From an uncultured Thermoplasmatales archaeon (lineage in GTDB: Archaea > Thermoplasmatota > E2 > UBA202 > DSCA01): a stretch of 64,000 bases of DNA. This document shows positions 30,119 to 54,283 of the stretch, piece after piece (position 1 is the first letter of the stretch; every line of letters starts with the position of its first letter). The notes beneath the pieces were generated by a model. It saw only the letters and a list, made by a program, of their open reading frames with translations. It was not told the DNA's origin and did not search any database. The position numbers were made by a program, and so were the translations under genes. The stretch is from NCBI GenBank assembly GCA_964514975.1, contig CAZESS010000010.1:1-64000 (forward strand), in the 5' to 3' direction.

Positions 30119-30127
30119 CACCCATAT

Positions 30128-37276: not shown

Positions 37277-37297
37277 TAAAGCCGCGGAGGGGGAACA

Positions 37298-37928
37298 TCA
37301 TGGAATCCGCTCAGAAAACAGCCATTTCAACACGATGAAAAGCTGTTTGAAATGCTCCCAGGCAATCCGTCGCCGTTTATCTATATCTTTGTTTATCACT
37401 TCCATGTCGGTTACTCTGGCACCATGCGACCGTGCTTCCAGAACGAAAACGCCGCAGGTGCAGGCTCCTGCCAGCTCAAGTTTCCGGGTAAGGATGTTTC
37501 GTATCGCCCGGTAGCCGGTGCCGCAGTCTGCTGTCCGCACCCGATAGTTGGTCAGATAATTGATAACCCGCTCCGACGGGCGAGGAATGTTTTTCCTCAC
37601 TCCAAGGACGACATCTGCCCTGTCGTTTTCGATAGGCTGTACCAGCCGGGGAATATAGCGGGAGGTCATGTTCGCCGTCGGCGTCAAGGGTGACGATGAT
37701 ATCCTGTTCTGCTTCGCGAAATCCTTTTTTGAGACAGGAGATATATCCCTGCCGTGTGGGGTTGCATATAACCCGGCCAAAACGGTGTGCAATCGATGCG
37801 GTGTCATCGGTGCTGTGATCGTCAATGACGATGATTTCATCGACGTAACGACCCGTCTCCTGGAGGACTGGTGCAATCCTTTCTGCCTCGTTATGGGCGG
37901 GTATGACCGCGGAAATCTTACTGGCCAT
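37298..37928 (-). pseudogene. GT2 (DPM1-like) glycosyltransferase split by a 1-nt frameshift near 37663
   Basis: 'VIPAHNE', 'DDHSTD', 'DADGEHD' in one frame; 'RYIPRLV.PI....ADVVLG.R' in another. Could be a sequencing error. Confidence 0.8.
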
Positions 37929-38883
37929 ACGGATTGTGCTGGATGAACCATGTGACTGTTTCGGCTATACCTGCTGAAAGAGGAACGGAGGGCCTGTATC
38001 CAAGTATCTTTTCAGCTTTGCTGATGTCGGCATAGTTGCGATAGATTTCTCCCTTTCTCGCTGGCTCGTAGTAGGGGTCAGCCACGGTGTAGCCATGGGG
38101 CTCCATCTCTTCTGTTATCATGTGATACAGGGTGTTTATGGTTGTTTCTGTCCCCGTTGCTATCTGAAAGAGTTCAAACCGGTTGGGGAGTTCCTCGGTC
38201 AAGGCCAGATAGATAGCTCTGGCGATGTCACGGGCATGAATGAAATCCCTGGTCTGGTCTCCGTCGCCATAGATGGCCACTCGCTCATTTCGAAGCATTT
38301 GCCTGAGAAATTTGGCGACCACGCTACCCTTCGTATATGAATGCGGCCCGTAGACGTTGGAGAACCGCAGGGCTACTGTGTCAAGGTCGTATGAGCCGGC
38401 AAAAGCGCTGCAGTATCCCTCTCCAGCGAGCTTGCTGGCTCCGTATGGGGATAACGGCCGGGGTGGTTTTTTTTCGTCCAGGGGCGGTGTCTGCTCGCCC
38501 AGGGGAGCTGCCGAGGAGGCCTGCACCAGCCGGGTAATGTTTCCCTCTGCTGCTTCTGTGAGCACGTTGAGCAGGCCAAATATGTTTATGTCTGCGTCTT
38601 CAAATGGGTCTTCTACGGATGGGATAACGCCGACCTGCGCCGCCAGGTTTACCAGATATGTGCTGCCCTGCAGGGCATCCGCTACAGTCTCCCTGTCGCG
38701 GATGTCTCCTTTGAGAAATGTTATCCTTTCAGGGGAAAATCCGTCAAGGTGTTCCAGGTTTTCTTTGCTGCCGCTGCTGAGGTTGTCCAAGATGATGATA
38801 TGCCAGTCGGTACTGGAAAGCAGATGCTCGGTGAGGTTGAGGCCGATAAACCCGCATCCCCCGGTTATGGTAATCTGGGTCAT
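37918..38883 (-). CDS. NAD-dependent epimerase/dehydratase (UDP-hexose 4-epimerase-like)
   Basis: 'TGGCGFIG', 'SPYGASK', 'NVYGP', 'GDG.QTRDF'. Confidence 0.92.
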   Translation of the reverse strand: MTQITITGGCGFIGLNLTEHLLSSTDWHIIILDNLSSGSKENLEHLDGFSPERITFLKGDIRDRETVADALQGSTYLVNLAAQVGVIPSVEDPFEDADINIFGLLNVLTEAAEGNITRLVQASSAAPLGEQTPPLDEKKPPRPLSPYGASKLAGEGYCSAFAGSYDLDTVALRFSNVYGPHSYTKGSVVAKFLRQMLRNERVAIYGDGDQTRDFIHARDIARAIYLALTEELPNRFELFQIATGTETTINTLYHMITEEMEPHGYTVADPYYEPARKGEIYRNYADISKAEKILGYRPSVPLSAGIAETVTWFIQHNPYGQ

Positions 38884-38884
38884 G

Positions 38885-39193
38885 TTACATCACACGTTGC
38901 AGCATTGCTTCCAGCTGTTCGGGGGATTTGGCTCCGACTGCCCGTTCCACGATGTCGCCGTCCTTGAAGATAAGATACGCGGGAACACCCAGTATATCGT
39001 ATTCCGTGGCGATGCCCGGGTTGCGGTCGATGTTGATTTTCGCGACGTGCAGCCGGTCGTCATATTTTTCAGCCAGCTGGCCGAGAACGTGTTTTTGCTG
39101 CTGGCAGGGAGGACACCATGAGCCCCAGAACTCGACCATCACGGGTCGGTCGGAGTGCAGGAGCTCTTTCAGTTTCTTTTTTGTGACCTCCAT
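38885..39193 (-). CDS. trxA: Thioredoxin
   Basis: 'FWGSWCPPC', cis-Pro 'GVP'. Confidence 0.92.
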   Translation of the reverse strand: MEVTKKKLKELLHSDRPVMVEFWGSWCPPCQQQKHVLGQLAEKYDDRLHVAKINIDRNPGIATEYDILGVPAYLIFKDGDIVERAVGAKSPEQLEAMLQRVM

Positions 39194-39204
39194 GGCGTTC
39201 ACCG

Positions 39205-40761
39205 TTATACTGGTTCCTCTACCTCAGCTTCCTGTTCTCCCGTGTGGAATATCGGCTCGTAGCCCTCGATGTCTTTTTCACCCGGCTTGTACACTTCGAG
39301 GACGCCGGTGTCCTTCTTTTCGCCGCTCCACCAGGTTTTCGGCAAAATGGTATGTGATTTTTCGTCGATACGTTTTTGTATCTCGGGGATGGTAAGAAGA
39401 TCGAACATCCGGGTGATTTCTTCTTCAAGGCTGACCCTGGGCTGGAAGCCAAATTCCTGTGGAAGCTTCGTCGAGACGACTTCGAAGGGATGCTTGTCGG
39501 CTTCCACCCGCGGGTTTTCCAGCCGCTGGATGGATACGTCAAGGTCGAATGCGTCGTTTCCGACGACGGCAACGGTTTCCGCCAGTCGCTTTATCTTGTG
39601 GAGTCCCGACACCTGGTTGACCACGTCGTATTGCCCGGGCTCCGGCGGCGACGAGATAAGGCGAACCATGCATTCCATGGCGTCCTCCAGAGCGATGAAT
39701 CCCCGTATCTGCTCGCCCTCCCCGTAGATGGTGAGCGGGATGCCCTGGATGGCCTGCGCCACGAAGCGGTTGACAACGGTGCCGAACCATTCGTCGATAT
39801 CCAGCCGGGTGCGCAGGCGGGGGTCCGCCGCCAGTTCATCGGTGTGCACACCATAGATGACGCCCTGCATGATGTCGTAGGAGCGGAGCCACCAGTATTT
39901 ACATGCCTCGTAGACGTTGAAGGTGTCCTGCACCTTGCTGACATGGTAGAAGCTGACCGGGTCACGGGGGGTGACCTCGCCGCCCATGCTCCATTCACGT
40001 CCATCCCATCTGAGGACCGCGTCGGAGGGAAAAAGGCCTTCGAACAGCGGCCGGCCGGTGAGGGGGCTTCCATATTCTCCCATGGTCCCGAGCTTGATGA
40101 GAGATGTCTCGGGTACGACATCCTTCATAATCCAGAGGAGACCAAGGGTGCCCAGCGTGTTGTTATCCTGGGTCTCGATGGCATGTTCGGCGTCCACCAG
40201 CGAGTAGGGTGCAGAGGGAATCTCCGCGTAGTGAACGATTGACTCCGGCTTCACTTCTTCGATGAACTCTCGAAGCTTTTTCCGGTCCCGGATGTCCATC
40301 CGGCGGAAGTTGATATCGATATCAAGGGCCTCTTTCGCCGCATGCAATCGCTCGGTCATCTTTTCGATGGGAACGATGGTGTGAGCGCCTTTCTCCATGA
40401 CGCAGTCACGGCGGGTGTAATTGTCAATACCGCTGACCTTGCAGCCCAGGACTCCCAGCTTCAACGCGAGCGTCCATCCAAGGTAGCCGTCCAGGCCGAG
40501 AATCATAACCCGCATGTCCCTCAGCATGTAAACATTATATTGTTCCTTGAACTCCCATTCCGGGCACTGTTCAAAGGTGATAGACGGCTCGAAATGTCCC
40601 AGCTCGGGCCGTCGCTTGCATTCTATCATAATCTGGCCTTCAGGGCCCATCTGCTTCTTTATTTCTTCCTTCGACTGCCCGCAGGCCCGAAAATCGACGT
40701 TTCCCTTGAATATGGCCGCCGGACAGTTCCAGCATGTCTTATCCGCATTATGTGGCTTCAT
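39205..40761 (-). CDS. sqdB: UDP-sulfoquinovose synthase (SqdB/Agl3) with an 82-aa Cys-rich N-terminal extension
   Basis: 'ILGLDGYLGW', 'DNYTRR', 'PSAPYS', 'KLGTMGEYG', 'SFYHVSK', 'FGTVVNRF', 'NPRVE'. Confidence 0.9.
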   Translation of the reverse strand: MKPHNADKTCWNCPAAIFKGNVDFRACGQSKEEIKKQMGPEGQIMIECKRRPELGHFEPSITFEQCPEWEFKEQYNVYMLRDMRVMILGLDGYLGWTLALKLGVLGCKVSGIDNYTRRDCVMEKGAHTIVPIEKMTERLHAAKEALDIDINFRRMDIRDRKKLREFIEEVKPESIVHYAEIPSAPYSLVDAEHAIETQDNNTLGTLGLLWIMKDVVPETSLIKLGTMGEYGSPLTGRPLFEGLFPSDAVLRWDGREWSMGGEVTPRDPVSFYHVSKVQDTFNVYEACKYWWLRSYDIMQGVIYGVHTDELAADPRLRTRLDIDEWFGTVVNRFVAQAIQGIPLTIYGEGEQIRGFIALEDAMECMVRLISSPPEPGQYDVVNQVSGLHKIKRLAETVAVVGNDAFDLDVSIQRLENPRVEADKHPFEVVSTKLPQEFGFQPRVSLEEEITRMFDLLTIPEIQKRIDEKSHTILPKTWWSGEKKDTGVLEVYKPGEKDIEGYEPIFHTGEQEAEVEEPV

Positions 40762-42059
40762 AGTGGTTCACCCTGTACATGATGTAAGATTGAGGTGACG
40801 TCCTCAACATGGGGATATGATGAGACTATTTTACTGTTTTCCCTTCCCTTAACATAAAGAAACGCGTCATCCTGCGTGTGCATGCCCACGATGGTGTCAT
40901 CCGTCTCGAAAAGGGAACGCTGTCGCATGCTCCCGCTCAGGCTGAACCCGGAATGCGGGAGCAGCACCATGTCTGGCGCCCGGTCAGTATGGTCGCCATG
41001 GTAGAGGTCTTTTTTTGTATATACCTTTTTGATGACCGGCTCGCCGTCTTTTTCCAGCTGGTAGAAGAGCTCCGTGAGCTCCTCAACGACCTGTTCTTCC
41101 TCGTCCTCCGTGACGGAGCCCCGGGGATACGTGTCTTTTTTGTTGAAATATACACGGGAAGGGTCCAGGGCAAATGCCTTCGTACCCCTTTCTATGTTGT
41201 TGTATTTTCTGTCCGGCTGGTCGCCCCAGTTGAGGTAGCCTTCGCTGGCGAGATACGTGTTGAGGTGGACGCTGGACTGGATGCGCTCCATGCCGTGGTC
41301 GGAGAGCATGAGGAGCGCGTCGTTGTCATGCATCCGGTTGTTGATTTCGCCGATGGCGTCGTCGACTCGCTTGAAGTATTCGAGGAATTGCTCGTGGTGT
41401 TTGTGGTCGGGGTCTTCGTAGGCGTCCCAGAGGAAATGTTCCAGGCGGTCGGAACCGGTGAACACGAGCATGAACGTGTCCCAGTCCATCGTGTTCCACA
41501 GCCTGCGGGAGAGCTGCATCCGTTTTTCGTGAACCCGGAAGAGGTCTTTGAGGAACAGCTCGGTTGACTTGTATGCTTTTTTGCTGTCGACGTCGACCCG
41601 GTAGCCCATGTCCTGCAATGTCTGCACAGATGATGGCGGATAGACGGCTTTTTGGAGGTCGAGGGACACGAAGCCGGAGACCCAGAAGCCGTTTATCTCT
41701 CTGACCGGATAGGTGGCGGGCACGTTGATGATGACATATGTTTTGTCATGCTGCTGCCAGAACGCCGGCTGCTGGATGTTACGATAGTTGGGAAATGACA
41801 TGGTGTAGGTGCCGGGTATCAGGTCGGTGAAACCGTAGATGCCGTGTTCCCCGGGATTTTTGCCGGTGATGATGGAGCTCCATGACACGGACGATATCTC
41901 GGGGATGGAGGACTCCATGGCGGTGAACACGCCGTCTCTGCGGAGCTCCCGGAAGTGTGGCATCACGCCATGGTCTGATAAATCCTCGAGAAGCCGGTAG
42001 GGGACACCATCGATACCGATGATGACCAGTCGTCCGTTGTTTTCTTTCTCGCTACCCAT
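40758..42059 (-). CDS. Alkaline phosphatase superfamily protein (type I phosphodiesterase/nucleotide pyrophosphatase)
   Basis: 'IIGIDG', 'S.VSW.S..TG.NPG.HGI.GF', 'DR..H', 'SDHG', 'G.H'. Confidence 0.88.
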   Translation of the reverse strand: MGSEKENNGRLVIIGIDGVPYRLLEDLSDHGVMPHFRELRRDGVFTAMESSIPEISSVSWSSIITGKNPGEHGIYGFTDLIPGTYTMSFPNYRNIQQPAFWQQHDKTYVIINVPATYPVREINGFWVSGFVSLDLQKAVYPPSSVQTLQDMGYRVDVDSKKAYKSTELFLKDLFRVHEKRMQLSRRLWNTMDWDTFMLVFTGSDRLEHFLWDAYEDPDHKHHEQFLEYFKRVDDAIGEINNRMHDNDALLMLSDHGMERIQSSVHLNTYLASEGYLNWGDQPDRKYNNIERGTKAFALDPSRVYFNKKDTYPRGSVTEDEEEQVVEELTELFYQLEKDGEPVIKKVYTKKDLYHGDHTDRAPDMVLLPHSGFSLSGSMRQRSLFETDDTIVGMHTQDDAFLYVKGRENSKIVSSYPHVEDVTSILHHVQGEPL

Positions 42060-42251
42060 AATAACTCGGTGTCATAAAGAACCCATTTATTTAAAAAACT
42101 GTCGGCTGTGGCTGTGGCGCTGTCTCCTGCCTGCCGTCTCGTTGTTCCTGTCCCTTTTCCATATTATTATTTATATCCATGCTGTTTTCATGCGCCAGAA
42201 CCGGCCTATTTTTCCATATCTATTTAAAAGCATAGCGCATTCAGGAGGCCG

Positions 42252-43766
42252 ATGATAGCCCGGAAGTCGGCGTTGATTATCGCTGTGCAGGCCGCCAACG
42301 GCATCCTGGGCTACATCGGGCTGAAGTTTATCGCCCTGTATATGGACCCCTGGCAGTACGGCGTCGTGGGCTTTGCCTACGGGCTGGTGAGCGTCCTCTC
42401 GATTGTCGGAAGGCTCGGGTTCGACCGGGCGCACATCAAGCGGGTGTCGGAGGGACGAGACCTGGGCACCTGTATCGCCACCTTTGCGTCCTCCAAGCTG
42501 GGGTTGGCCGGCGTGATGTCCGCCGTGTTGATGGTCGGGGTCGTGGCGTGGAAATATGTCCTCGGCCGGGGTTTCGAGTCGGTGGTACACCAGCAGGCGA
42601 TGTATGTGATGCTGGCCTATTTTTTCCTTTTTACGCTGAGCCGGATATTTGTTTCCACGTTTAACGCCCGGAAGGAAACCGCGAAGGCGATGCTGCCCAT
42701 GTTCGCCTATCAGATAGGGCGGATCGGGGCCACGGTGTATGTCGCCCTGTCCGGGCTCGGGGCCCTCGCGCTCGCCTATACATATATTGTCGGGGAGATA
42801 TTCGAGGTGGCTCTCGCCTGGTATTTTGCCCGGCGGTATCCGGTGGGGAAACCCACGGCGTCGATGGCGAAGAGCTACATCTCGTTCGCGATGCCCATGG
42901 CCGTGGTGGTGGCCTCGTCGATTCTCATGCGGAACATCGACAAGGTGTTCATCCAGCTTTTTATGTACGCGGAGGACGTGGGCCGGTATTTCGCGATCAG
43001 CAACCTCTCCCGGTTCATCATCCTGTTTGTCTCCGCGGTGGGCACGCTTATCTTCCCCACCATCTCGGAGCATCATGCACGGAAAAACATGCGGGAGATA
43101 GAGCGGCTGACCCTTGTCTCCGAGCGATATCTGAGCATGATGGTGTTCCCCCTGGTGATGCTGATGGTGGTGCTGGCGGAGCCCATCATCCGGGTTTTGC
43201 TGAGCAACAAGTATCTGCCCGCGCTGACGGTGCTGCAGATCATGCCGTTTTTCGTGCTGATCGAGGCATTGTCGAAGCCATATGACACGCAGCTGTCCGG
43301 CATGAACCTGCCCCGGCTGACCAAGAACAGGGTGATCATCATGGCGGCGAGCAACGTGGCGTTGAACCTGGTGCTCATTCCACCGGACATTAAAAGTATT
43401 GGATTGAAAACGGCGGGGCTGGGCGTGGAGGGAGCAGCGGTGGCCACCGTGGCCGCCTACGCTATCGGGCTGCTGTATATCCGGTTTGTGGCATGGCGGA
43501 TGACGGGCATCAAAGCCAATCCGCGTATCGTGCTGCACGCGATTGCGGCCGGAGGGATGGCGCTGCTGCTCTGGTATGTGAACCAGATGGCCCATTTTGG
43601 CCGATGGTATGAGCTTCTGGGAGCGGGTTTGTTCGGTCTTGGGGTATATGTCGGCCTGCTGGTTTTGATGCGGGAGTTCACCCGTGAGGACTTCGACCTG
43701 TTCATGGACACCCTGAACGTGAAAAAGATGCTCGCCTATGTCAGGGACGAGATACGGAGAGAGTAG
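42252..43766 (+). CDS. Oligosaccharide flippase (Wzx/MOP family)
   Basis: Many TM helices; 'IDK..I', 'VG.Y', 'IFP.IS', 'N..LN.VLIP', 'G..GAAVAT'. Confidence 0.9.
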   Translation: MIARKSALIIAVQAANGILGYIGLKFIALYMDPWQYGVVGFAYGLVSVLSIVGRLGFDRAHIKRVSEGRDLGTCIATFASSKLGLAGVMSAVLMVGVVAWKYVLGRGFESVVHQQAMYVMLAYFFLFTLSRIFVSTFNARKETAKAMLPMFAYQIGRIGATVYVALSGLGALALAYTYIVGEIFEVALAWYFARRYPVGKPTASMAKSYISFAMPMAVVVASSILMRNIDKVFIQLFMYAEDVGRYFAISNLSRFIILFVSAVGTLIFPTISEHHARKNMREIERLTLVSERYLSMMVFPLVMLMVVLAEPIIRVLLSNKYLPALTVLQIMPFFVLIEALSKPYDTQLSGMNLPRLTKNRVIIMAASNVALNLVLIPPDIKSIGLKTAGLGVEGAAVATVAAYAIGLLYIRFVAWRMTGIKANPRIVLHAIAAGGMALLLWYVNQMAHFGRWYELLGAGLFGLGVYVGLLVLMREFTREDFDLFMDTLNVKKMLAYVRDEIRRE

Positions 43767-43868
43767 ACCGCCGCTGTGTCGACAGATATAAATGATATTC
43801 CTGTATTTTGAGGACTGAGTGATAACGGTGTCTCTTGTAACACGCTCTATTATTATGGGGGTTGTATC

Positions 43869-44843
43869 GTGCATGTCGCAGTGATTGGAACCGGCAGGGT
43901 CGGACGGTATACGGTGATGCTGCTGGCGAGCGAACGCTGGATAGACCGGCTGACGCTGGTTGATGTAAAGCCGGGCCTGGCACGGGCGGTGGCGGAGGAG
44001 GTCAGGCATGCCCTGGCCAGCATCCGGAATCCCATCGAGGTGGATTCGTTCCAGGACAGCATGGCGGTACAGGACGCCGACATCGTCCTGGTTACGGCGG
44101 GAACGCCGCGGACGCCTGACATGAAGGAGCGGACGAATCTGACGTCGCGGAACGCCGCCATCATCCGGGATATCGCGGAGGTCGTGGCTCCCGCTAACCC
44201 GGATGCCAGGTATGTGATTGTGACCAACCCGGTGGACGCCATGGCCACCCTGTTCAAAGAGATATCGGAGGCACGATGGGTCATCAGCACGGGAACGAAT
44301 CTGGAAAGCCAGCGATTTCGAGCCGAGCTCGCGAAACAGTTGGACATCCCTATCTCTGCGGTGCAGGGGTTCGTGGGCGGGGAACACGGCCAAAGAGCGG
44401 TGTTTTTGTGGTCGACGGTAAAAATAGGGGGATTGCCCCTGGAAAAATACACGGATATGACAGGAAAAACCATCGACAAATCTATGATAGAGAAATCAGT
44501 GAAAGAGATATCACGGCACATCATCAAGGCGAGCGGCGGCACCAGACATGGGCCGGCAACTTCTTTTAGGGATATTGTACGGTCTGTAGCAGTGGACGAG
44601 AACCGGGTGCTGTCGGTTGCCACCCCGTATGAACTCCGGGATGGGTCCGGGGAGGTCATGGTTGGCAGACCACAGATGGTCGGCAAATATCTCGGATACA
44701 CGCTGGAAGACGATTTGACCCCGGGCGAACGAGACAGCATTGAAACGGCGGCACAACGAATCCATGAAACATATACAAAAATATACAAAAGCCAAATCAG
44801 CCCTGGAACCATGAGGGATGGCAGGCAGCCGACCAATGAATAG
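43869..44843 (+). CDS. LDH/MDH-family 2-hydroxyacid dehydrogenase (MDH-like)
   Basis: 'VIGTGRVG', 'AGTPR.P', 'VTNPVD', 'GTNLESQR', 'GEHG'. Confidence 0.88.
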   Translation: MHVAVIGTGRVGRYTVMLLASERWIDRLTLVDVKPGLARAVAEEVRHALASIRNPIEVDSFQDSMAVQDADIVLVTAGTPRTPDMKERTNLTSRNAAIIRDIAEVVAPANPDARYVIVTNPVDAMATLFKEISEARWVISTGTNLESQRFRAELAKQLDIPISAVQGFVGGEHGQRAVFLWSTVKIGGLPLEKYTDMTGKTIDKSMIEKSVKEISRHIIKASGGTRHGPATSFRDIVRSVAVDENRVLSVATPYELRDGSGEVMVGRPQMVGKYLGYTLEDDLTPGERDSIETAAQRIHETYTKIYKSQISPGTMRDGRQPTNE

Positions 44844-45810: not shown

Positions 45811-46130
45811 AAGGTTTTTTCTGAGCTGTCAAACTGATAAAATAAGTGTCATTGCAGCAATAATATTTGTAATACTCTCTTGCAAGGTGATAATATGATT
45901 TTGCCTTTTTCCAGACGGTTTTTACCACTGAGCATTAACTGTCGAATCACAGGTGTTTTTCCCCGCCTTTTAGTACGGTAGCCTTTACGGCAAGGTACTC
46001 AGGATGCGGCAATAGCCTCCAACTCTAGGCATCAATATGGTCACTTTTCCAGAAAGGACTTAGATTTAATCCTTCCACCCCTAAACCAGAAATAAGATTT
46101 TCGCTTGATGTCCGGAAGTGTACTGTCCGG

Positions 46131-46547
46131 AAGCATGATGCGCTGGCTATCGATGAGACCATGGTAAGGATCGACGGTGAATGATGGATTGTCTGGGCTG
46201 CCATCGATATGGAGCGATGGGACATCTTGGCCGTCTGAATCACCCAGGCCCGGTCATCTCTTGAAGCATACAGCTTCATTAAGCATGCCCTCCGGAAATG
46301 CACAAATGAGCCAACCATCTATGTGGACAGATGTCCGTGGTATAAGCCGGCGCTGGAACGCCTCAGCATAACATGGGAGCGTAGGACGTTTGGCCCGCAG
46401 AATCCCATCGAGCAATGGTTCGGCATACTGAAGCACCGGGTCAAACGGTTCTATGTCCGCTGACCGTATAACGCCGGGCGCGACACCGCCCAGCAGTGAA
46501 TCGCCGCCTTTGTGACGCTCTACAACATCAGGAAGTGCCTAAGTTGA
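46131..46547 (+). mobile_element. IS6-family transposase remnant (3' half), inactivated
   Basis: One frame reads 'LAIDETMVRI...WIVWAAID...YVDRCPWY..AL...TFG..NPIEQWF..LKHR.KRF'. In-frame TGA at 46182, 46236, 46461 and 46497. Ends CTAAGTTGA, as archaeal IS6 transposase genes often do. Confidence 0.85.
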
Positions 46548-46734
46548 TATCTACAAAGATGGGACAAAAAAGAGATTAAAAATGGCAGTTGACTATGAAT
46601 CTATAATATCTTTTTATGAAAAATAAATCCGATATATTTTTAACCTAATTCCTTTTTATTCTTGGCGTGATAACATAACAACTCACGAATATTTAAAAGA
46701 AAATAAACAAATAGAAAGGTCACTTAAAAATTCC

Positions 46735-47400
46735 GTGGTGTTTCATGTAGGTCTTTCTAAAACGGGTTCTTCATTTTTGCAAAATTGCGTTTTCCCAGAA
46801 ATTGACGTTAATCTAATCAAGCAATTCAAATTACATTCATCTATCGACGGAAAATATGATATCACACTTGTTTCTGATGAAACTTTATCCAATGACTGTC
46901 TGTGGTTCAACTGTGCTCCCCGCAATGTCGTGGCAAAACGGATACACGATCTTTTCCCGAGGGCATCAATAATTATTGTCACTAGAGATAAAGATGATTT
47001 TGCACGGTCTATGTGGAGAGAATATGTAGAGTGGGGCGGTGATAAGTCTTACCAAGCCTGGCGTAATGACATGAAACAATGTAACCCGGATGTTTTTTCT
47101 TTCGGCAAATACGTGGATTTATTAAATTATCTTTTTGAAAGAGTTCTCGTTTTGGAGTTTAGCACACTAAAAGACGACGTCGAATATTTTATTAGTGAAA
47201 TCTGTGACTTTATCGGCGTTCCAATACCAGATTATGAAAACAGGATTGTAAATAAGTCACTTGATAAGAAGGCAGCAAAAAGATGGCAACGTTTCAACCG
47301 TTTTTTTAGCTCGCACTGGAGTAAGGGGAGGCTACCCATGTATTCTAATCCCCTATATTGGATGCGTCAAATGAGAAAACGATTAGGCGTGCAATTATGA
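46735..47400 (+). CDS. Sulfotransferase-family protein
   Basis: PAPS-binding-like 'FHVGLSKTGSSFLQ', 'VSDE.LS', 'IIIV.R......S', 'IC.FIG', 'N.S'. Low GC. Confidence 0.75.
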   Translation: MVFHVGLSKTGSSFLQNCVFPEIDVNLIKQFKLHSSIDGKYDITLVSDETLSNDCLWFNCAPRNVVAKRIHDLFPRASIIIVTRDKDDFARSMWREYVEWGGDKSYQAWRNDMKQCNPDVFSFGKYVDLLNYLFERVLVLEFSTLKDDVEYFISEICDFIGVPIPDYENRIVNKSLDKKAAKRWQRFNRFFSSHWSKGRLPMYSNPLYWMRQMRKRLGVQL

Positions 47401-47503
47401 AAAAGGCAGCATCTGCCAACACTCAAATACGACGTCACTTAATAATACATGATATGTTTTTTTGTATTTATTTATGTCAGCTTTATCTCGATTAAATAAT
47501 AAC

Positions 47504-48112
47504 CTAGATTTTGCCGCGCGGGTTTATTAACTTTTGATAAAAAAAATCGTACATTTTTCTCGGCATTTTCTTAACATATTTTGGATATTTTAAAGATATA
47601 ATTGAGTTTGTTCGCAGATATTGAATAAAGTTTCTTGGGTCTCTACTAGGATGCTCCATATGCTTCACTGCACTTACTGGAAATTTTATAAGTTCATACC
47701 CCATTTTCTGGAGTCGATAGCTGAATTCTACATCTTCAGAAAAAAGCATCATGGGATCAAATCCACCCACCTTAAAAAAGTCCTTCCTCGTAATGGATAG
47801 AACCCTGCCTATCAAATAATCATGCCATCTACTTTTAAGACCAGCTACACTATGCTCACTGACTGCAAACGTTAACTTTTTGAAAAATATCTTTGAAAAT
47901 TTTATATCGTCATCCATAAACACTAAAACATTCCCAGATGCTTTCATTGCCCCAATATTTCTGGCGACAGAAAGACCGTTGATGGATTCATTGTCGGTTT
48001 TCCAATCAGAAATAATTACTTCTACATCGTCGGGAACAGATTTAAGCGTTGCCGGCTCCTCTGAGAGGGTAGGAATGACTACGGTAACATCTTTTTCCAT
48101 ATTTTCTCGCAT
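47504..48112 (-). CDS. GT2 glycosyltransferase (short)
   Basis: 'VVIPT', 'ARNIGA', 'FMDDD', 'GGFD', 'EDVEF.YR'. Low GC. Confidence 0.85.
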   Translation of the reverse strand: MRENMEKDVTVVIPTLSEEPATLKSVPDDVEVIISDWKTDNESINGLSVARNIGAMKASGNVLVFMDDDIKFSKIFFKKLTFAVSEHSVAGLKSRWHDYLIGRVLSITRKDFFKVGGFDPMMLFSEDVEFSYRLQKMGYELIKFPVSAVKHMEHPSRDPRNFIQYLRTNSIISLKYPKYVKKMPRKMYDFFYQKLINPRGKI

Positions 48113-48174
48113 TAAACTCAACCACTTATTTAATTTCTTCTAAACATCAATAGGTATTTAAATACCCATGGAAT

Positions 48175-49131
48175 ATGAGCTCGTCTGTTATGGGAGATAC
48201 GAAGCAACATCAGAGTGTTACCATCGTTGTCAATGTTTACAACGCTGCCGATATCATCGACGACTTTATGGGTTCGCTTACAGAACAAACATTTACAGAT
48301 TTTCATCTGTTGGTCATCGACGATGGGTCGACCGACCACACCATACAAAAAATCGAAAAATACAACGAGCAGATAGACATATCCATTCACCGGCGCTCCC
48401 ACCAGGGCATCAAAAAAGCCCGAGCCTACGGCGTCCAGCAGGCATCCGGAGACATCATCATAATCCTCGACGCCGATCTCATCCTCGATTGCCACGCCAT
48501 CGAAGAACTTGTCAGGCCGCTGGAAACCGACACCGTCGGCGCAGTCGGAGGAACACTCAAAGGAAAAGGAGACACCACAACAAGCAAAGCCTATGGATTC
48601 CTCCGAGAACTCTTCTACAGCCTTCGAGCAAAAGGACAACAGGCCGACTGGCTAACCGGAGGATTCGCTGCATTCAAACAAGAGGTGATAAAAAAAGCGG
48701 GTGGATTTTCAACCGAACAGCTTTCCGGCGACCTCGACATATCCTGGAAGATAAAAAAGCAGGGCTACAGGCTCGTGCTCAACCAGGATGCGGTCGCATA
48801 TCACCGCGACCCCGAAACCCTCCAAGAGATATGGAACCGAGAAAAAAACATCGGCCAGCGGGAATACCATCTCACCAAAAAACATCCCAAAGAAGCGATG
48901 AAACCCCGCAGGCTATTCCGGTTCTACCCGATGCTGCTGCCCGTCGCCATACTCCTCACATTTCTCTCATGGCCGCTCGTCGCCACGATAATAGCAATAT
49001 CATACCTTGCAACTCTCATAGCAGTGAAAGGCACGTTCAAAGTCCGGAGTATCGCCTGGCTGGTGTTCAACGTGATGAACGCTGCCTACTGCACAGGATT
49101 CCTCTCCACCATGCTCATCAATAAAAAATAG
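48175..49131 (+). CDS. GT2 glycosyltransferase with C-terminal TM helices
   Basis: 'DDGSTD', 'LDAD', 'GGF', 'DLD.S', hydrophobic C-terminus. Confidence 0.88.
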   Translation: MSSSVMGDTKQHQSVTIVVNVYNAADIIDDFMGSLTEQTFTDFHLLVIDDGSTDHTIQKIEKYNEQIDISIHRRSHQGIKKARAYGVQQASGDIIIILDADLILDCHAIEELVRPLETDTVGAVGGTLKGKGDTTTSKAYGFLRELFYSLRAKGQQADWLTGGFAAFKQEVIKKAGGFSTEQLSGDLDISWKIKKQGYRLVLNQDAVAYHRDPETLQEIWNREKNIGQREYHLTKKHPKEAMKPRRLFRFYPMLLPVAILLTFLSWPLVATIIAISYLATLIAVKGTFKVRSIAWLVFNVMNAAYCTGFLSTMLINKK

Positions 49132-49265
49132 TACAAGAATATCATTTTATGCCGGTGCACCAGAATTTGCTGCACCCGCCCGGAGAGACATTTCCTCCAC
49201 CAGGCCCTCAAGCAGGGATAGTATATGCTATCAATGAAGAATCACCACTTTTCTTACAAATTTTC

Positions 49266-50885
49266 TTATAAGTCCGTGTACTCATCTCTCATTTTCTGCA
49301 GCCAGTAGGAGAGCACGAACAGCAGATAGAAAAAATAGCCATGCCTGCCGCCGGACACCCGCTCCGCCAGTGCATCCACGTTGTCAGCGATGCCTGCAGC
49401 CTCAATGTGGTCGACCATAAACCGATGCAGCCGTGGCTCCTTCGCGATCACCCCGCCAACCTGCTCGACCGTCTGGCTGCCCGGACAGAGCTTTTTTTTG
49501 ATTTCCTGCACATACTTTGTCATAACCTGAAGCCGCCGTGGCGCATTCAATGGAAAGGCATACCGGGTCGTCAGTATCTTATACTCGGGAGACATCTTCT
49601 GCAGCAATGAATAATACAGCTTATTGTTGACCCTGTCGTTTCGCTGCATGCAGCTGAAATAAAAATCATAGTCCAAGAATGGGAACAACCGTTCCGGAGG
49701 CGCCCTAGAAAACTTGAACATGTGCCGGCGTCGCTCTCGCATAAACATGTGATATGCCTCTATGTCCACATGCTCGAAGGGGACGGGCACCGCCGTCAGT
49801 TTTTCATATACCTCTGGGACCAGGTACCGCTGGAGAGCACCTCCTGGTATTTTGGTCCGCACCCTGTCGAGCAGAGAACGTGAAACAGAGCGAAAAGGGA
49901 TGCCGAACAGGATGGTCAGATAATACCGTTTATCCCGGAGCAGCAAAAATTCCCCCGAGACAGGAGGGGCAAACCCGCCGCTGAGCCTGACATTGAATCC
50001 CGGTGCGGTCGTCTTGGATACCTCAGGTTTTCGTATATCAAACGGATTTTGTGTGTCAAAAAGTTGTTGCACCTGTTCTTTGGACCGTGCCGTCTGGCTC
50101 CTGAGTATACGATGTTGTTTTATGTCCAGGTTGCTCGTCAGCTCTTTCGCCAGCCGGACATCCTCCCGTTGCGCCGCATCAGGCTGCTCAGGACACCCAG
50201 TTATGGCGGTCAGCTCCTGCTTGTTCGGCCAGTGAAACAGCACAAAGCGGGAATCAATGCCGCCCGACAGGTTGAGGGCATACTCGATCTCATCCGTGTA
50301 CAGCCGCTGGCATCCCCGCCGAAAAAGCTCCTCGACATCCCGGGAGATGGTGACATTTTGTGGCGTATACGACCGCACCTCTACCGACGGCCGTTTCATA
50401 TCATAGGCCACAATGGCGTGTGGCGACAGCACCCTGATATACCGGTCCTGAGTTTCATATCGCAAAAAGTTGCCATATTTGAGATACTGGGAGAGGGCAT
50501 ACCAGTCGATCTCCCGGAAAGGCAGATTGAGAATGTTTGAGGAAAACTGAAACGGCTCACAGGTGGTATAATAAAATGGTAGCTGACCGAAATAGTCGTT
50601 GGCCACGTAGAGCTTTTCCCTGTTTTTGTCATGGACAAGCAGGTTGAACTTGCCCGTCCTGATCTTCTCGACGAAGCGGATGCCATGTTTTTTGTACATC
50701 ATGTGCAGCCTGTGCAGGGTTTCCTGCCGCAGGCTTTCGCCGATGTCGTCCTCAAGGACGAGGTAGCCGTCAACCGCGATGACAACGTCGCTGGTTTCAT
50801 AGATGTCGTCAAAAAAAACCTGGTTCAGGTTGACCGTGAGCTCGCCGTCAACAAAATGAAAGCCAATGTCATCTATATCTTCCAT
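49266..50885 (-). CDS. Asparagine synthetase-like (AsnB-type) ATP-dependent amide ligase lacking the N-terminal catalytic Cys
   Basis: 'NDYFGQLPFYY', PP-loop 'LSGGIDSR', 'PFLD'. The N-terminus is MEDI, not MCGI. Confidence 0.75.
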   Translation of the reverse strand: MEDIDDIGFHFVDGELTVNLNQVFFDDIYETSDVVIAVDGYLVLEDDIGESLRQETLHRLHMMYKKHGIRFVEKIRTGKFNLLVHDKNREKLYVANDYFGQLPFYYTTCEPFQFSSNILNLPFREIDWYALSQYLKYGNFLRYETQDRYIRVLSPHAIVAYDMKRPSVEVRSYTPQNVTISRDVEELFRRGCQRLYTDEIEYALNLSGGIDSRFVLFHWPNKQELTAITGCPEQPDAAQREDVRLAKELTSNLDIKQHRILRSQTARSKEQVQQLFDTQNPFDIRKPEVSKTTAPGFNVRLSGGFAPPVSGEFLLLRDKRYYLTILFGIPFRSVSRSLLDRVRTKIPGGALQRYLVPEVYEKLTAVPVPFEHVDIEAYHMFMRERRRHMFKFSRAPPERLFPFLDYDFYFSCMQRNDRVNNKLYYSLLQKMSPEYKILTTRYAFPLNAPRRLQVMTKYVQEIKKKLCPGSQTVEQVGGVIAKEPRLHRFMVDHIEAAGIADNVDALAERVSGGRHGYFFYLLFVLSYWLQKMRDEYTDL

Positions 50886-51046
50886 GGTATAATCCTGCAG
50901 CTAGGGGCAACATGCCCGGTTTTTTTAAATAATTTGTTGTTTTGTAGCGCCGGCTTCCCATATACCTTAAATATTGCGGCCTCATTGCACTGGGTGCAGA
51001 CACACCTTTCGATAGTGCTCTGCATATGCATCATTGAAGTGGTAGC

Positions 51047-52372
51047 ATGAAATACAGGGTCAGATGTCTCAACTGCGGAAAAACATATGGCGAAGACGAA
51101 TACGTGACCAGGTGCACAAACGGCTGCGACGCGATGCTGCGCACCGAATACGAGCAAAAACAGATTGAGTCCGTCGACGAATATCCAGGGCTCTGGCAGT
51201 ACATCAACTGGCTGCCCGTCAACTCTGTCGACAGCCGCATCCTCGAGCACAGCAGCACCTTCCACACATACCGGAGCGAAAAGCTGGCCGACCATCTCGG
51301 CCTGGACAACCTCGTCATCTGCCTCAACGCGTTTCGCCCCGGACACCGGGCGAGCATGAAAACCGCCACGTTCAAGGACATCGAAGCCGAGCTGTCATTC
51401 CAGCGCATCCAGACCACAAAAGACCATGGCAAACCATTCATTCTTTCCTCAGCGGGCAACACCGGCACCGCGTTCATATATTATTCTAATATCGTTAAAT
51501 ATCCAATCGTGCTAACAGCCACTGAGGAGGCCCGTCGAAATCGAATCTGGTCATACCGGAAGTCAAACCCATATGTGACCATGATAACCATGCAAGACCG
51601 TTGCGATTACTGTGACGCAATAAGCCTTGCCCGTGAACTCGGGAGCAGCGGATATTTCGTAGCAGAAGGCGGCGCCCGCAACGTCGCCCGTAGAGACGGG
51701 ATGGGCACTATCATGCTCGATGCCACCAGGATGCTCGGCCGGATGCCCGACCACTATTTCCAGGCGCTTGGCTCCGGGCCGGGAGCCATCGCCGCCTACG
51801 AGGCATCGCTCCGCCTGCAACGGGACGGCCGCTACGGCGACAGGCTGCCAAGGATCCATGGCGCACAAAACGCCCCGTTCGCGCCGATGTATGACGCCTG
51901 GCATGCCGGAACAAGGTGCATCGACACCAAATACCAGTGCGAGGCGGCCAAAAACCTGATACGGCAGGTGCACGCCCACGTGCTCACCAACCGCCATCCA
52001 GCCTACGACGTCAAAGGCGGCGTGTACGACGCGCTCTCCGCCACCAACGGCGAGTTCTACTGCATATCCAACGAGGAGGCACGGCGGGCGCAGCAGCTGT
52101 TCAAACGGCTGGAGGGCTGCAGCATCGTGCCCGCCGCCGGCGTCACCGTGGCCTCCCTCATCCAAGCGGTGGAAAACGAGCTCGTTGACCCCGACGACAC
52201 GGTTTTGCTCAACATCACCGGCGGCGGCAGACAGGAAATGGAGATGAAAAAGTTTAAAGTAACGCCCTCCATTACCCTCACACGGAACTATGACCCTGAA
52301 CAGGTCCTGCACGAGGTTTTATCATGCAACAAAAAATTGAGCGCGCAAAAGAACTCATACGAGAGGGAATAG
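51047..52372 (+). CDS. Cysteate synthase (threonine synthase-like PLP enzyme)
   Basis: 'T.TFKD.EA', 'SAGNT..AF', 'EGGARNVARRDGMGT', 'PDHYFQA.GSG.G.IA', 'VL.NR.P.Y', 'LLNITGGG'; these match the methanogen cysteate synthase family. Confidence 0.88.
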   Translation: MKYRVRCLNCGKTYGEDEYVTRCTNGCDAMLRTEYEQKQIESVDEYPGLWQYINWLPVNSVDSRILEHSSTFHTYRSEKLADHLGLDNLVICLNAFRPGHRASMKTATFKDIEAELSFQRIQTTKDHGKPFILSSAGNTGTAFIYYSNIVKYPIVLTATEEARRNRIWSYRKSNPYVTMITMQDRCDYCDAISLARELGSSGYFVAEGGARNVARRDGMGTIMLDATRMLGRMPDHYFQALGSGPGAIAAYEASLRLQRDGRYGDRLPRIHGAQNAPFAPMYDAWHAGTRCIDTKYQCEAAKNLIRQVHAHVLTNRHPAYDVKGGVYDALSATNGEFYCISNEEARRAQQLFKRLEGCSIVPAAGVTVASLIQAVENELVDPDDTVLLNITGGGRQEMEMKKFKVTPSITLTRNYDPEQVLHEVLSCNKKLSAQKNSYERE

Positions 52373-53100
52373 AAACATATGGAGACCGGGTGGCCGTCGG
52401 CTGCAGCTGGGGAAAAGACAGCATGGCCCTGCTGCATCTCGCCCTGGAGGTCGACCCGGACGTACCGGTGTTTTCGATTTTGACGGTACACAAGCCGGAT
52501 GAAACATATGAATATGCCAAAAAGGTATGCGAAAAATACGACCTCGACCCGCATATCTACATGGTGGCAGACGAGGTCCCCGAAGCAATCGAAGGGATGA
52601 ACGTCACGCTGCTCCCGATGGATGAATACAAAAAAGAGGCGATGCGGATAAAAACCGAGAGCGGGCGCGACATCTACTACGAGGACCCCGACCTGTGCTG
52701 CCAGCTGCTCAAGGTCGTGCCCACCCGACATGCATACAAGGACATGGACCTGCGGGCATGGTTCAGCGGGCTGCGGAACACCGAGGGGCACACCAGGACG
52801 TTCCTGGACGAAAAAGAAAAACGGAGCGACAAAGAAGTAAAAATTAATCCCATACTTGGCTGGTGGGAAAACGAGGTGTGGCGATACCTGGAGGAAAACG
52901 ACATCCCCATCCATCCATGGTACGACAAAAAGTTCGAAAACGGCAAAAAAATCCGCTCGCTCGGCTGCGCACCCTGCACCGTCCCCGTCCATGAATATGA
53001 GGCAGAGCGAGCCGGACGATGGAGAGGAACAAACAAAAAAGCCGGGGAATGCGGCATCCACACGCAGCCGCTCAGAAAACTGAAAAAAGACGAAGTCTAA
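52324..53100 (+). CDS. cysH: Assimilatory APS/PAPS reductase, Fe-S (APS) type
   Basis: 'SWGKDS', 'CC..LKV.P', 'K.NPI..W', 'SLGCAPCT', 'R.GRW', 'ECGIH'. Confidence 0.88.
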   Translation: MQQKIERAKELIREGIETYGDRVAVGCSWGKDSMALLHLALEVDPDVPVFSILTVHKPDETYEYAKKVCEKYDLDPHIYMVADEVPEAIEGMNVTLLPMDEYKKEAMRIKTESGRDIYYEDPDLCCQLLKVVPTRHAYKDMDLRAWFSGLRNTEGHTRTFLDEKEKRSDKEVKINPILGWWENEVWRYLEENDIPIHPWYDKKFENGKKIRSLGCAPCTVPVHEYEAERAGRWRGTNKKAGECGIHTQPLRKLKKDEV

Positions 53101-53117
53101 CCCCCTTTTTTTTCTTT

Positions 53118-54125
53118 TTACCATATCCGCCGCCGGAGCAGCGCATAGAGCACCCCATACGCATATGACACATGGACGCCGGGGAGCAAAAGCAGCGCAT
53201 ACAAAAACAGCCGGACATCGTGGTAGCCATGGGCCAGCCGAACCGATTCCAGCGCAATGGCCATCGCATAGGCCACGCCGCCAAGAAACAGCAGCACGAC
53301 GAGCCAGTCGAGAATGCCGAACACGGTGAAGAGCACTACGGCGGTAAGCAGACCTACAAGCCCGTAGGCGGGCCAGAGATAGATGTGGCTGAGCAGGCCC
53401 TGCAGGCCATGTTTTTTGACGATCGCGACCTTGGCCTTCGCCCATTTGTATATCTGCCTGGCGAAATGACGGATGTGCTGCTTACGGTAATGCACAACCC
53501 TGACCCGGGACGAGTACAGCAGCCGATGGCCGGCACGGCGTATCCGATGGTTGAGCTCCAGGTCCTGTCCCTTCACAAACGCCTCGTCGAACAGGCCCAC
53601 CTCCATCACAATGCTGCGGCGGAGCGCCAGGTTGCAGGTCGGGATGTGGTCGACATAGCTCGTCCCCCGTTCCATGGTATGCTGCGTCGACGGGTTGAAC
53701 TGGCCGCCCCGCGCCAGCGGCGACGTCATCACCCGGCCGACCGCCTTGGATTTGTAGATGCTGTCCCCGGGGAGCAGGTCGGGGCCGCCGACGCCTGCAA
53801 CGTCGTGCTCCATAAAAAGACGGCTGATCTGGCTGAGCCAGTCATCATAGGGAACCGCGTCGCCGTCAACAAACGCGACGATGTCGCCCTGCGCTGTCTC
53901 GATGCCCCGGTTGCGGCCCGCCGCCGCGTTCTCCAGGGGATTGCGCAGCAGCCGAAAGTCATGCACCTCCTGCAACTCCTCGAGCAGCTCATAGGTGCCG
54001 TCGGTGCTCATCCCGTCGATCACGATGACCTCGTAGTCCTCATAATCCTGCCGGGACAGCCCCTCGATACATTTCTGGATGTGCGGGCGTTCGTCTTTGA
54101 CTGCCACGACGACTGAAATGAGCAC
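53118..54125 (-). CDS. GT2 glycosyltransferase (ExoA-like) with C-terminal TM helices
   Basis: 'DGMSTDGT', 'GRN.G', 'FVDGD', 'GLFDE', 'QDLELN.R'. GTG start at 54125. Confidence 0.9.
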   Translation of the reverse strand: MLISVVVAVKDERPHIQKCIEGLSRQDYEDYEVIVIDGMSTDGTYELLEELQEVHDFRLLRNPLENAAAGRNRGIETAQGDIVAFVDGDAVPYDDWLSQISRLFMEHDVAGVGGPDLLPGDSIYKSKAVGRVMTSPLARGGQFNPSTQHTMERGTSYVDHIPTCNLALRRSIVMEVGLFDEAFVKGQDLELNHRIRRAGHRLLYSSRVRVVHYRKQHIRHFARQIYKWAKAKVAIVKKHGLQGLLSHIYLWPAYGLVGLLTAVVLFTVFGILDWLVVLLFLGGVAYAMAIALESVRLAHGYHDVRLFLYALLLLPGVHVSYAYGVLYALLRRRIW

Positions 54126-54237
54126 AGGAAGAATTATGCCAGCGTTAATAAACGTTCTCCTGTTCACCGGCCGCTGCGAATCAGGCGGCTGGAATGATGC
54201 CGGGTGGCGGCGTCCGATGGACGGCATATCGTAAAAC

Positions 54238-54283
54238 ATGTTTAACGATATAACGAAAGATTATTAAATATGTTTAACGATAT
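54238..54283 (+). repeat. 14-bp direct repeat ATGTTTAACGATAT (54238, 54270) in the promoter of the AAA/DUF4143 gene
   Basis: Exact duplication flanking a TATA-like TTATTAAATA. Confidence 0.6.

Follow-up and report, generated by a model that had tools for sequence, protein, structure and literature searches.

A probable mosaic surface-glycan island with two putative sulfonation cassettes, one with a CysH-coupled cysteate synthase and one with a long-form SQD1, in a Thermoplasmatota-type archaeon

Sulfonated sugars shape the surfaces of archaea, and sulfoquinovose is a major pool of organosulfur. To our knowledge, the source of the sulfite used by SQD1-type enzymes is poorly understood. Another enzyme that forms a carbon-sulfur (C-S) bond, the cysteate synthase of Methanosarcina acetivorans, reportedly serves the coenzyme M (CoM) route (Graham et al., 2009). 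Here we describe a locus in which predicted enzymes of both kinds are encoded together: the island at positions 37298-54239 of a 64-kb stretch of archaeal DNA, which we call the window (that is, the whole stretch that was analyzed). Other described systems bear on it as well. One study gives UDP-glucose and sulfite as the substrates of Agl3/SQD1 and Thr145/Tyr182/Lys186 as its catalytic triad (PMC4388408). WbpS and WbqG, members of the AsnB family, convert the uronic acids of glycans to uronamides, according to PMC7468200. Finally, the N-glycan of Thermoplasma acidophilum contains 6-C-sulfofucose, a sugar that differs from sulfoquinovose only at C4; a 2025 paper notes that a pathway for sulfofucose biosynthesis had yet to be identified (PMC12421959).

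A reading of the sequence alone (hereafter the sequence-only reading) had proposed the island as a candidate new system for a multiply sulfonated surface glycan. That it is one conserved system was not supported by comparison with other genomes: the island is a mosaic of two independently recurring cassettes, and only here, among the genomes searched, do they occupy the same locus. We consider it somewhat more probable than not that the region is a variable surface-glycan island of a non-methanogenic, Thermoplasmatota-type mat archaeon, in which two sulfonation cassettes are accompanied by a sulfotransferase, a Wzx-type flippase and glycosyltransferases (GTs). In the genome of 1.96 Mb (completeness 98.9%, contamination 2.9%), the window is contig C10. 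Genes of the cassettes were sought in the 60 closest relatives and in a phylum-wide sample of 401 genomes. As for the individual genes that the sequence-only reading had listed, open reading frame (ORF) lists and Pfam/NCBIfam scans located every one of them.

Cassette B consists of a membrane GT2, an AsnB-like ligase, cysteate synthase and CysH:

49266-50885, minus strand: AsnB-like adenylating enzyme of 539 amino acids (aa) (GATase_7, 31.3 bits)
51047-52372, plus strand: predicted cysteate synthase, cysS (TIGR03844, 449.6 bits; cut-off 324.9)
52324-53100, plus strand: predicted CysH of the Fe-S type (PF01507, 138.8 bits; NF002537, 167.5 bits, cut-off 154)
53118-54239, minus strand: membrane GT2 with a hydrophobic C-terminal part (PF00535, 92.1 bits)

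The AsnB-like gene and cysS are divergently transcribed, and the end of cysS shares 49 nt with cysH. The cysteate synthase matched TIGR03844 with the score given above, as opposed to 69.7 bits for the best threonine-synthase model; its PALP domain scored 99.6 bits. In an alignment of 19 cysteate synthase sequences (alignment A1), F109-K110 is invariant and D111 nearly so; we take K110 to be the lysine of the fold-type II family that binds pyridoxal phosphate (PLP). The CC pair, GCAPCT and ECGIH of CysH align to the Mycobacterium tuberculosis enzyme (7lhr), while the fungal reductase of 3'-phosphoadenosine 5'-phosphosulfate (PAPS), 7rge, is without the CC and CxxC motifs. The assignment of CysH as a thioredoxin-dependent assimilatory reductase of adenosine 5'-phosphosulfate (APS) or PAPS, of the Fe-S type, is supported by these motifs.

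Could this pair simply belong to ordinary assimilatory sulfate reduction, with CysH leading to sulfide and cysteine and the PLP enzyme acting as a threonine synthase? Together, CysH, sat and cysC form a standard set for that purpose, and there are the weak matches of the PLP enzyme to threonine-synthase models. Indeed, sat and cysC, which the sequence-only reading had suggested looking for elsewhere in the genome, are clustered on contig C5 (25333-30120; L183): ATP sulfurylase (sat) and APS kinase (cysC), with a DHH-family phosphoesterase between them, adjoin a Na/sulfate symporter. The phosphoesterase is possibly a pAp phosphatase, and beside the cluster lie further genes, one for a universal stress protein and one for a histidine kinase of 2004 aa that has 14 PAS stretches. 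Assimilation is nonetheless very improbable. TIGR03844 far outscores the best threonine-synthase model (449.6 vs. 69.7 bits), cysS and cysH lie within a glycan island whose G+C content at third codon positions (GC3) is low, and no sulfite reductase with an NIR_SIR domain was found in the genome by a search that was positive in 11 of 14 control genomes.

The cysteate synthase family was defined in methanogens, and the enzyme might be a remnant or a part of a CoM route like that of Methanosarcinales and Methanomassiliicoccales; in the latter, one study infers the use of cysteate synthase together with ComDE (PMC4153887). The sequence-only reading had named a complete CoM pathway elsewhere in the genome as an explanation that would undo it. 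However, the 98.9%-complete genome has no match for mcrA and none for ComD (the alpha subunit of sulfopyruvate decarboxylase), and because both are absent, CoM does not explain the cysteate synthase. The gene is also intact and overlaps cysH. In a maximum-likelihood tree (46 rows, quick search), the window's enzyme belongs to a 25-row clade (SH-aLRT 100%) that stands apart from the methanogen and bacterial enzymes, and mcrA was found in none of the four other genomes that carry the cysS-cysH clade. We thus give a role in CoM synthesis hardly any credence. In the absence of a CoM route and of a sulfite reductase, the sulfite from the island's CysH most likely enters C-S bonds rather than CoM or sulfide.

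How general is the coupling of cysteate synthase to CysH? Within the 25-row clade, CysH is adjacent or fused in all nine rows with known context (eight distinct sequences). Across wider samples the arrangement is infrequent: an adjacent CysH was present in 4 of 80 loci of the cysteate synthase family in species-representative genomes (two Thermoplasmata and two spirochaetes) and in 3 of 30 loci of the phylum, namely the window itself, the congener G003 and a partial match in L254. Families f11, f32 and f50 of the phylum sample include many genomes with a canonical cysteate synthase to which CysH is not adjacent.

Of the 60 relatives, G003 (identity 83%) and three genomes from genus g21 (52-55%) were found to have a true cysteate synthase ortholog. 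G003 keeps the asnB/cysS/cysH/GT2 arrangement, with identities of 59, 83, 89 and 76%, respectively, and there cassette B lies inside another glycan island, with Wzx (a 65% ortholog), GDP-mannose dehydratase, an epimerase, a GT2 and a GT4; a split AlkP-family gene and transposases are also found in that island. On two metagenome contigs (L100 and L101), AsnB-like, cysS and cysH genes share a strand (43-47, 56 and 60-66% identity). A third (L102), from a very low-GC organism (GC3 ~0.17), has cysS-cysH flanked on one side by UDP-sugar dehydrogenase, epimerase and nucleotidyltransferase genes and on the other by those for a 628-aa protein without a family, a PIG-L-type deacetylase and pseudaminic acid synthase (PseI), with an ABC flippase upstream. 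When the AsnB-like profile was compared with this 628-aa protein (hhalign), the probability was 1% and only a PP-loop-like SSGLDS stretch aligned; we claim no homology between them. In genus g21, cysteate synthase and CysH form a single protein of 670 aa (G045; L017 6174-8186), and many fused cysS-cysH clusters of 640-675 aa exist in the protein database. A fusion of ~670 aa with an adjoining phosphatidylserine-decarboxylase-like gene was also noted in G053, G057, L020 and L021.

The sequence-only reading had held that the locus makes its own sulfite. The overlap of cysH with cysS, the 670-aa fusion in a related genus, the sulfate-activation cluster on contig C5 and the lack of an NIR_SIR match in the genome agree with this, and from such gene evidence a dedicated sulfite supply to C-S bond-forming enzymes is well supported.

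The partner of this pair, the AsnB-like protein, is, as judged from its sequence, a distant relative within the AsnB superfamily only. It scored 48.4 bits with TIGR01536 (cut-off 267.1) and 30.8 bits with TIGR03108 (cut-off 816.9), and PF00733 was not reported. Its profile matched human ASNS (9b6c) with an E of 1.5e-5 and with the PP-loop aligned, while a PDB search with the single sequence gave 0 matches. The family is small: a word-seeded search of 5.8 billion clustered proteins yielded 13 close homologs, and the 401 sampled genomes contain three true members. The PP-loop, LSGGxDSR, is invariant in the family alignment of 11 sequences, none of which has the N-terminal glutaminase cysteine. 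The window's protein begins MEDIDDIGFH, and its open frame extends merely five codons upstream of the start. Because this cysteine is absent, the enzyme cannot make its own ammonia. We propose that it is a cysteate amide ligase that would join cysteate to a carboxyl-bearing sugar; alternatively, the carboxyl group of cysteate might be coupled to an amino sugar. In G003, and in G016, a genome from another family of the same order, the AsnB-like gene has an ortholog of the membrane GT2 as its neighbor (76 and 60% identity, respectively). In the latter, the AsnB-like gene is split across two frames (L291 688-3322, contig C5) with the GT2 ortholog directly upstream; this pair may be a decaying remnant of cassette B.

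Cassette A is one tight operon:

40758-42059, minus strand: cytoplasmic AlkP-superfamily protein (type I phosphodiesterase/nucleotide pyrophosphatase; PF01663, 155.9 bits)
39205-40761, minus strand: putative long-form, SQD1/Agl3-like UDP-sulfoquinovose synthase of 518 aa, sqdB (NF041015, 403.9 bits; cut-off 575)
40516-40761, minus strand: the 82 N-terminal residues of that protein, a domain with five invariant Cys and no Pfam match
38885-39202, minus strand: thioredoxin with a WCPPC site (PF00085, 79.1 bits)
37918-38883, minus strand: nucleotide-sugar 4-epimerase-like short-chain dehydrogenase/reductase (SDR) (PF01370, 186 bits)
37298-37951, minus strand: frameshifted GT2 (PF00535, 68.7 bits, N-part only)

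From the start of the AlkP-family gene to the GT2, these genes overlap or lie 1-2 nt apart; the AlkP-family gene overlaps the start of sqdB by 4 nt. Given such overlaps and spacing, and the recurrence of both gene sets in other genomes, the clustering is not due to chance.

Residues 83-479 of the SQD1-like protein align to residues 12-393 of the Arabidopsis SQD1 structure (1i24; E 6.5e-76), and the KLGTMGEYG and SFYHVSKVQD motifs coincide in this alignment. G89-x-x-G92-x-x-G95, T226, Y272, H273 and K276 are invariant in the window's protein and eight relatives (alignment A2) and are matched in SQD1. A His directly after the catalytic Tyr is a further signature of SQD1. We therefore regard this protein as a probable UDP-sulfoquinovose synthase, with UDP-glucose and sulfite as its presumed substrates. 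The identities that the sequence-only reading had assigned to SQD1, cysteate synthase and the Fe-S CysH were accordingly upheld, by the 1i24 alignment, TIGR03844 and the cluster-Cys motifs shared with 7lhr, respectively. The closest solved structures to the epimerase-like SDR are 4-epimerases (4zrm, E 3.9e-53, then WbpP and WbgU), with dehydratases lower; it is a candidate UDP-sulfoquinovose 4-epimerase.

The feature that sets this SQD1 apart is its N-terminal domain. Twelve sequences share C10, C13, C27, C48 and C66 without exception, and an RPxLGxFxP stretch is invariant or nearly so in them. No Pfam family matched residues 1-82, and a protein Atlas search with the domain yielded a best score of 0.83, which is at chance level, and no family. 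A scan of 1.84 billion representatives returned just 40 proteins at E<=1e-3, among them stand-alone proteins of 75-85 aa. The predicted complex of the domain with thioredoxin scored 0.00 in two runs, a result that speaks neither for nor against binding. In one long-form SQD1 from the scan (P0144, 845 aa), the catalytic-threonine motif is itself interrupted, at KLG|TMGE(Y/F)G, by ~330 intein-like residues.

An SQD1 match was present in 40 of the 401 sampled genomes. Five of these have the long form, with 70-77% identity that includes the N-terminal extension; the remaining matches begin at about residue 80 and have ~40% identity. In all five other long-form loci, thioredoxin lies directly downstream of the long SQD1. 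AlkP-family orthologs (48-62% identity) are found in four of the five and stand directly upstream of sqdB in three; the epimerase ortholog occurs in 3/5, the small GT2 in 3/5, Wzx in 2/5 and the sulfotransferase in 1/5. The last of these loci (G321) has a 35% homolog of the island's sulfotransferase and a 51% ortholog of its GT2 at 48175-49131. Around short-form SQD1, by contrast, thioredoxin, AlkP and epimerase genes were found within 1.5 kb in none of 24 loci, many of which have a nucleotidyltransferase beside SQD1 instead. The sequence-only reading had assigned the thioredoxin to the APS reductase as its partner. Since the gene adjoins SQD1 in the long-form loci, including those of genomes without a canonical CysH, it belongs with the long SQD1 and not with CysH. 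Together, the N-terminal domain, thioredoxin and the AlkP partner could deliver the sulfur donor of SQD1 by a route not known for SQD1/Agl3.

One might then suppose that the sulfoquinovose cassette alone decorates the glycan, that CysH mainly feeds SQD1 and that the cysteate synthase homolog and the AsnB-like protein have unrelated roles. SQD1 requires sulfite, and the genome has no canonical APS reductase besides the island's CysH; in vitro, sulfite at 0.1-100 mM was used with Agl3, and a 5,6-ene intermediate accumulated at 0.1 mM, according to PMC4388408. But CysH travels with cysS, adjacent or fused, and not with SQD1: in four of the five other long-SQD1 genomes neither CysH above the cut-off nor cysteate synthase was found, and the congener G003 retains cysS-cysH and has no SQD1. 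We consider this explanation unlikely. ATP sulfurylase is present in the long-SQD1 genomes G214, G077 and G142. In long-SQD1 genomes that lack a canonical CysH, sulfite must come from elsewhere, possibly from larger proteins with a PAPS_reduct domain. Such proteins occur in G077 and G142, both of which are without a canonical CysH, as possible alternative sulfite sources; the window's own genome encodes a second PAPS_reduct-domain protein of this sort, in a 617-aa frame on contig C4 (88963-89493; L181).

Several of these results, and some further ones, weigh against a working island in which two cassettes sulfonate a surface glycan. The cassettes are separable in both directions, as just described for G003 and for four of the five long-SQD1 genomes, and SQD1 was found in none of the 60 closest relatives. 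The sole other long-SQD1 genome with both cysteate synthase and CysH, G214, has them on a different contig and in a non-glycan context. In cassette A, the GT2 is frameshifted, and the SQD1-like protein, for which NF041015 covers model positions 1-383 of 384, scores below the equivalog cut-off of that model (403.9 vs. 575 bits). In cassette B, the AlphaFold2 model of the AsnB-like protein (11-row alignment) reached a pLDDT of only 50.9 and a pTM of 0.33; because this model is poor, the fold assignment rests on weak sequence matches. G016 has the GT2/AsnB-like pair and no cysteate synthase match in its genome. No dehydrogenase that forms uronic acids is encoded in the island, and the only one in the genome is on contig C8. 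Finally, a phosphatidylserine-decarboxylase-like gene comes next after cysS-cysH in two genomes of family f4 (G045 and G214), with no glycosyltransferases nearby.

The f4 loci lend themselves to a different account, which we rate as a definite minority possibility: the cysteate cassette would make a sulfonate, free in solution or attached to lipid (cysteate, taurine, sulfolactate or an N-acylated form), as an osmolyte or small metabolite, and its position in the island would be incidental to a variable region that is exchanged horizontally. Upstream of cysS-cysH lies a PaaK-like adenylate-forming enzyme in G045, with an ATP-grasp gene near, and a 467-aa ORF without a family in G214. Because cysS-cysH adjoins decarboxylase- or ligase-type genes there, cysteate may serve a non-glycan product in that family. 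The cysS-cysH-decarboxylase order of G214 is unfused (L241 3320-6072) and hints at a cysteate-to-taurine-type step. The island's dehydrogenase of the malate dehydrogenase (MDH) type, with its Arg kept, could reduce sulfopyruvate, and the mixed GC3 of the island (0.35-0.77) is in keeping with piecemeal acquisition. Against this account, the window's genome, G003 and G016 each combine the AsnB-like gene with a membrane GT2, cysS-cysH is set amid sugar-nucleotide and flippase genes in G003 and L102, and Pfam scans revealed no aminotransferase or decarboxylase among the island's genes. The same scans found no acyltransferase of the alpha-oxoamine synthase type in the island; synthesis of sulfonolipids was another reading that we rejected. 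A surface-glycan island with two sulfonation cassettes remains the reading that we favor.

The rest of the region comprises the hexosamine-sugar block that flanks the island upstream and six further island genes (ORF lists and Pfam/NCBIfam scans):

31725-32972, plus strand: glmU-like (Pfam NTP_transferase and Hexapep)
32969-34765, plus strand: glmS (identified from its translation)
34770-36074, plus strand: phosphohexomutase (Pfam PGM_PMM I-IV)
36062-37276, plus strand: second glmU-like gene (Pfam NTP_transferase and Hexapep)
42252-43766, plus strand: Wzx-type oligosaccharide flippase (MOP domain; PF13440, 82.9 bits; PF01943, 63.9 bits)
43869-44843, plus strand: LDH/MDH-like 2-hydroxyacid dehydrogenase (Ldh_1_N, Ldh_1_C)
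44818-45810, plus strand: 330-aa ORF, candidate GT-B (GT4-like), a protein Atlas lead only
46735-47400, plus strand: sulfotransferase of the PAPS-dependent family (PF00685, 35 bits, >22; PF13469, 34 bits, >27)
47504-48121, minus strand: small GT2-like protein (PF10111, 32.2 bits; PF00535, 27.6 bits)
48175-49131, plus strand: GT2 (PF00535, 97.5 bits)

The block of two glmU-like genes, glmS and phosphohexomutase would be the source of UDP-hexose and UDP-GlcNAc. The sequence-only reading had counted five glycosyltransferases, one of them frameshifted. Four GT2 genes are supported by Pfam, and the frameshift is real; the fifth is the GT-B candidate, for which there was no Pfam or NCBIfam match and which rests on Atlas matches of 0.96-0.97 to clusters that partly carry Glyco_transf_4. 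The closest PDB entries to the dehydrogenase are archaeal MDHs (E 1e-64), and the Arg of the 'PR' motif is aligned; its scores were below the NCBIfam cut-offs. In MDHs, this Arg selects substrates with a second anionic group. The gene is the only copy of its family in the genome and was found in none of 40 relatives; it is for this reason an accessory of the island and not a housekeeping gene of the lineage. The sequence-only reading had also allowed for a sulfolactate-derived substituent; for such a branch, the enzyme could act on sulfopyruvate, but the island encodes no aminotransferase. The sulfotransferase has an N-terminal GLSKTGSS loop, presumably the PAPS loop. Two STT3/AglB homologs and one UDP-sugar dehydrogenase are encoded on other contigs.

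Base composition varies along the region. Within the island, GC3 ranges over the values given above, as against ~0.8 in the flanking housekeeping genes, which include an A-type ATPase, a class I Glu/Gln-type tRNA synthetase and AcnX; the glm block has 0.71-0.80. Variable glycan regions that were assembled piecemeal typically show such a mixed pattern. The sulfotransferase (GC3 0.36) and the neighboring small GT2 (47504-48121; 0.35) depart clearly from the ~0.8 of the core genome, and this adjacent pair (46735-48121) looks like the latest acquisition of the island. The frameshift of the cassette A GT2 lies at about 37655-37664: an intact 217-aa ortholog from G214 aligns over residues 2-93 in frame -1 and 97-209 in frame -2 (tblastn). 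A Logan contig from the sole public run containing this stretch, a microbial-mat metagenome and probably the source of the DNA, matches positions 37200-53781 with 0 differences at a depth of 14.3. A second assembly thus shows the same contiguity and the same frameshift, although it is not independent of the sample. Rfam and tRNA scans of the window detected one tRNA-Pro and nothing further. Farther upstream, the stretch at 26500-31700 has low GC (0.49-0.54) and small ORFs only, with no rRNA, tRNA or tandem repeats; by eye, with no family search, we take these ORFs to resemble a toxin-antitoxin cluster (PIN-like, RelE-like and nucleotidyltransferase-like proteins and small partners). An AAA_14/DUF4143 ATPase is encoded at the island's edge (54296-55585).

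How might these parts work together? Sulfate would be imported by the Na/sulfate symporter and activated to APS and PAPS by the products of the sat/cysC cluster. CysH, with thioredoxin, would reduce APS to sulfite, from which cysteate synthase would make L-cysteate with O-phosphoserine. The AsnB-like enzyme would adenylate a carboxylate and use an amine other than ammonia, namely cysteate, to form an amide on a carboxyl-bearing sugar, and the paired membrane GT2 would handle the modified or the acceptor sugar. In parallel, the long SQD1 would combine UDP-glucose with sulfite into UDP-sulfoquinovose, some of which the 4-epimerase-like SDR would turn into UDP-sulfofucose at C4; the cassette A GT2 would transfer the sulfosugar to a lipid-linked glycan. 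The sulfotransferase would add O-sulfate from PAPS, and Wzx would flip the lipid-linked product. The expected products would be a glycan, on proteins or lipids, that bears sulfoquinovose or sulfofucose, a cysteate amide and O-sulfate. That all three of the more specific proposals hold jointly (decoration of a glycan with cysteate or a derivative by the AsnB-like ligase, a redox-coupled SQD1 and a first route to UDP-sulfofucose) we put forward tentatively, as considerably less probable than the island reading itself.

New in this locus are the CysH-coupled lineage of cysteate synthase in non-methanogens, its AsnB-like partner and the thioredoxin-linked long SQD1. The first would add to CoM synthesis and bacterial sulfonolipids a third lineage of cysteate synthase, one that in archaea other than methanogens is physically linked with APS reductase or fused to it; the second may represent a small family that attaches a sulfonated amino acid to glycans; and the locus as a whole provides candidates for the sulfite source of SQD1-type enzymes and for a sulfofucose route. 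In literature searches, we found no paper that combined cysteate synthase with sulfoquinovose and none that combined cysteic acid, amide-linked and polysaccharide. By their titles and the openings of their abstracts, none of 20 papers on cysteate synthase, out of 22 found, was about glycans.

In comparison with known systems, the island resembles each of them in part. Like the T. acidophilum sulfofucose glycan, it comes from a related phylum, and its putative sulfohexose synthase gene adjoins a 4-epimerase-like gene; the short-form SQD1 loci of the phylum, perhaps including Thermoplasma, are unlike it in having no epimerase within 1.5 kb. The AsnB-like protein shares with WbpS and WbqG its superfamily, the PP-loop and a place in a glycan locus with a flippase and GTs, but it is without the catalytic Cys, belongs to a tiny family and is genetically tied to cysteate synthase. 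In common with the M. acetivorans cysteate synthase, the window's enzyme passes the TIGR03844 cut-off and keeps the FKD lysine. It differs in that its host is a non-methanogen without ComD, in that it belongs to a separate, CysH-coupled or CysH-fused clade and in that it is surrounded by glycan genes and an AsnB-like ligase gene instead of genes for CoM synthesis. Alistipes and Odoribacter, reportedly producers of the sulfonolipids capnine and sulfobacin and represented among the genome matches of the cysteate synthase family, offer the parallel of a cysteate synthase homolog in non-methanogens and of a structural sulfonate; their enzymes fall in the other main clade of the tree and had no adjacent CysH in the examined loci. 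With Agl3/SQD1 of Sulfolobus acidocaldarius, the window's SQD1 has in common the SDR core, GxxGxxG, the Thr/Tyr/Lys triad, the His after Tyr and a setting amid glycosylation genes; it has, in addition, the 82-residue, five-Cys N-terminal domain and insertions in the core, and the long form is always followed by thioredoxin, with an AlkP-family gene usually upstream or in the locus. Lastly, the island's CysH has the PAPS_reduct fold, the CC...CxxC motif and ECG(I/L)H of the M. tuberculosis (7lhr) and Pseudomonas aeruginosa (2goy) enzymes; unlike the product of these assimilatory reductases, its product is apparently consumed by C-S bond-forming enzymes, and in relatives CysH is itself fused to cysteate synthase.

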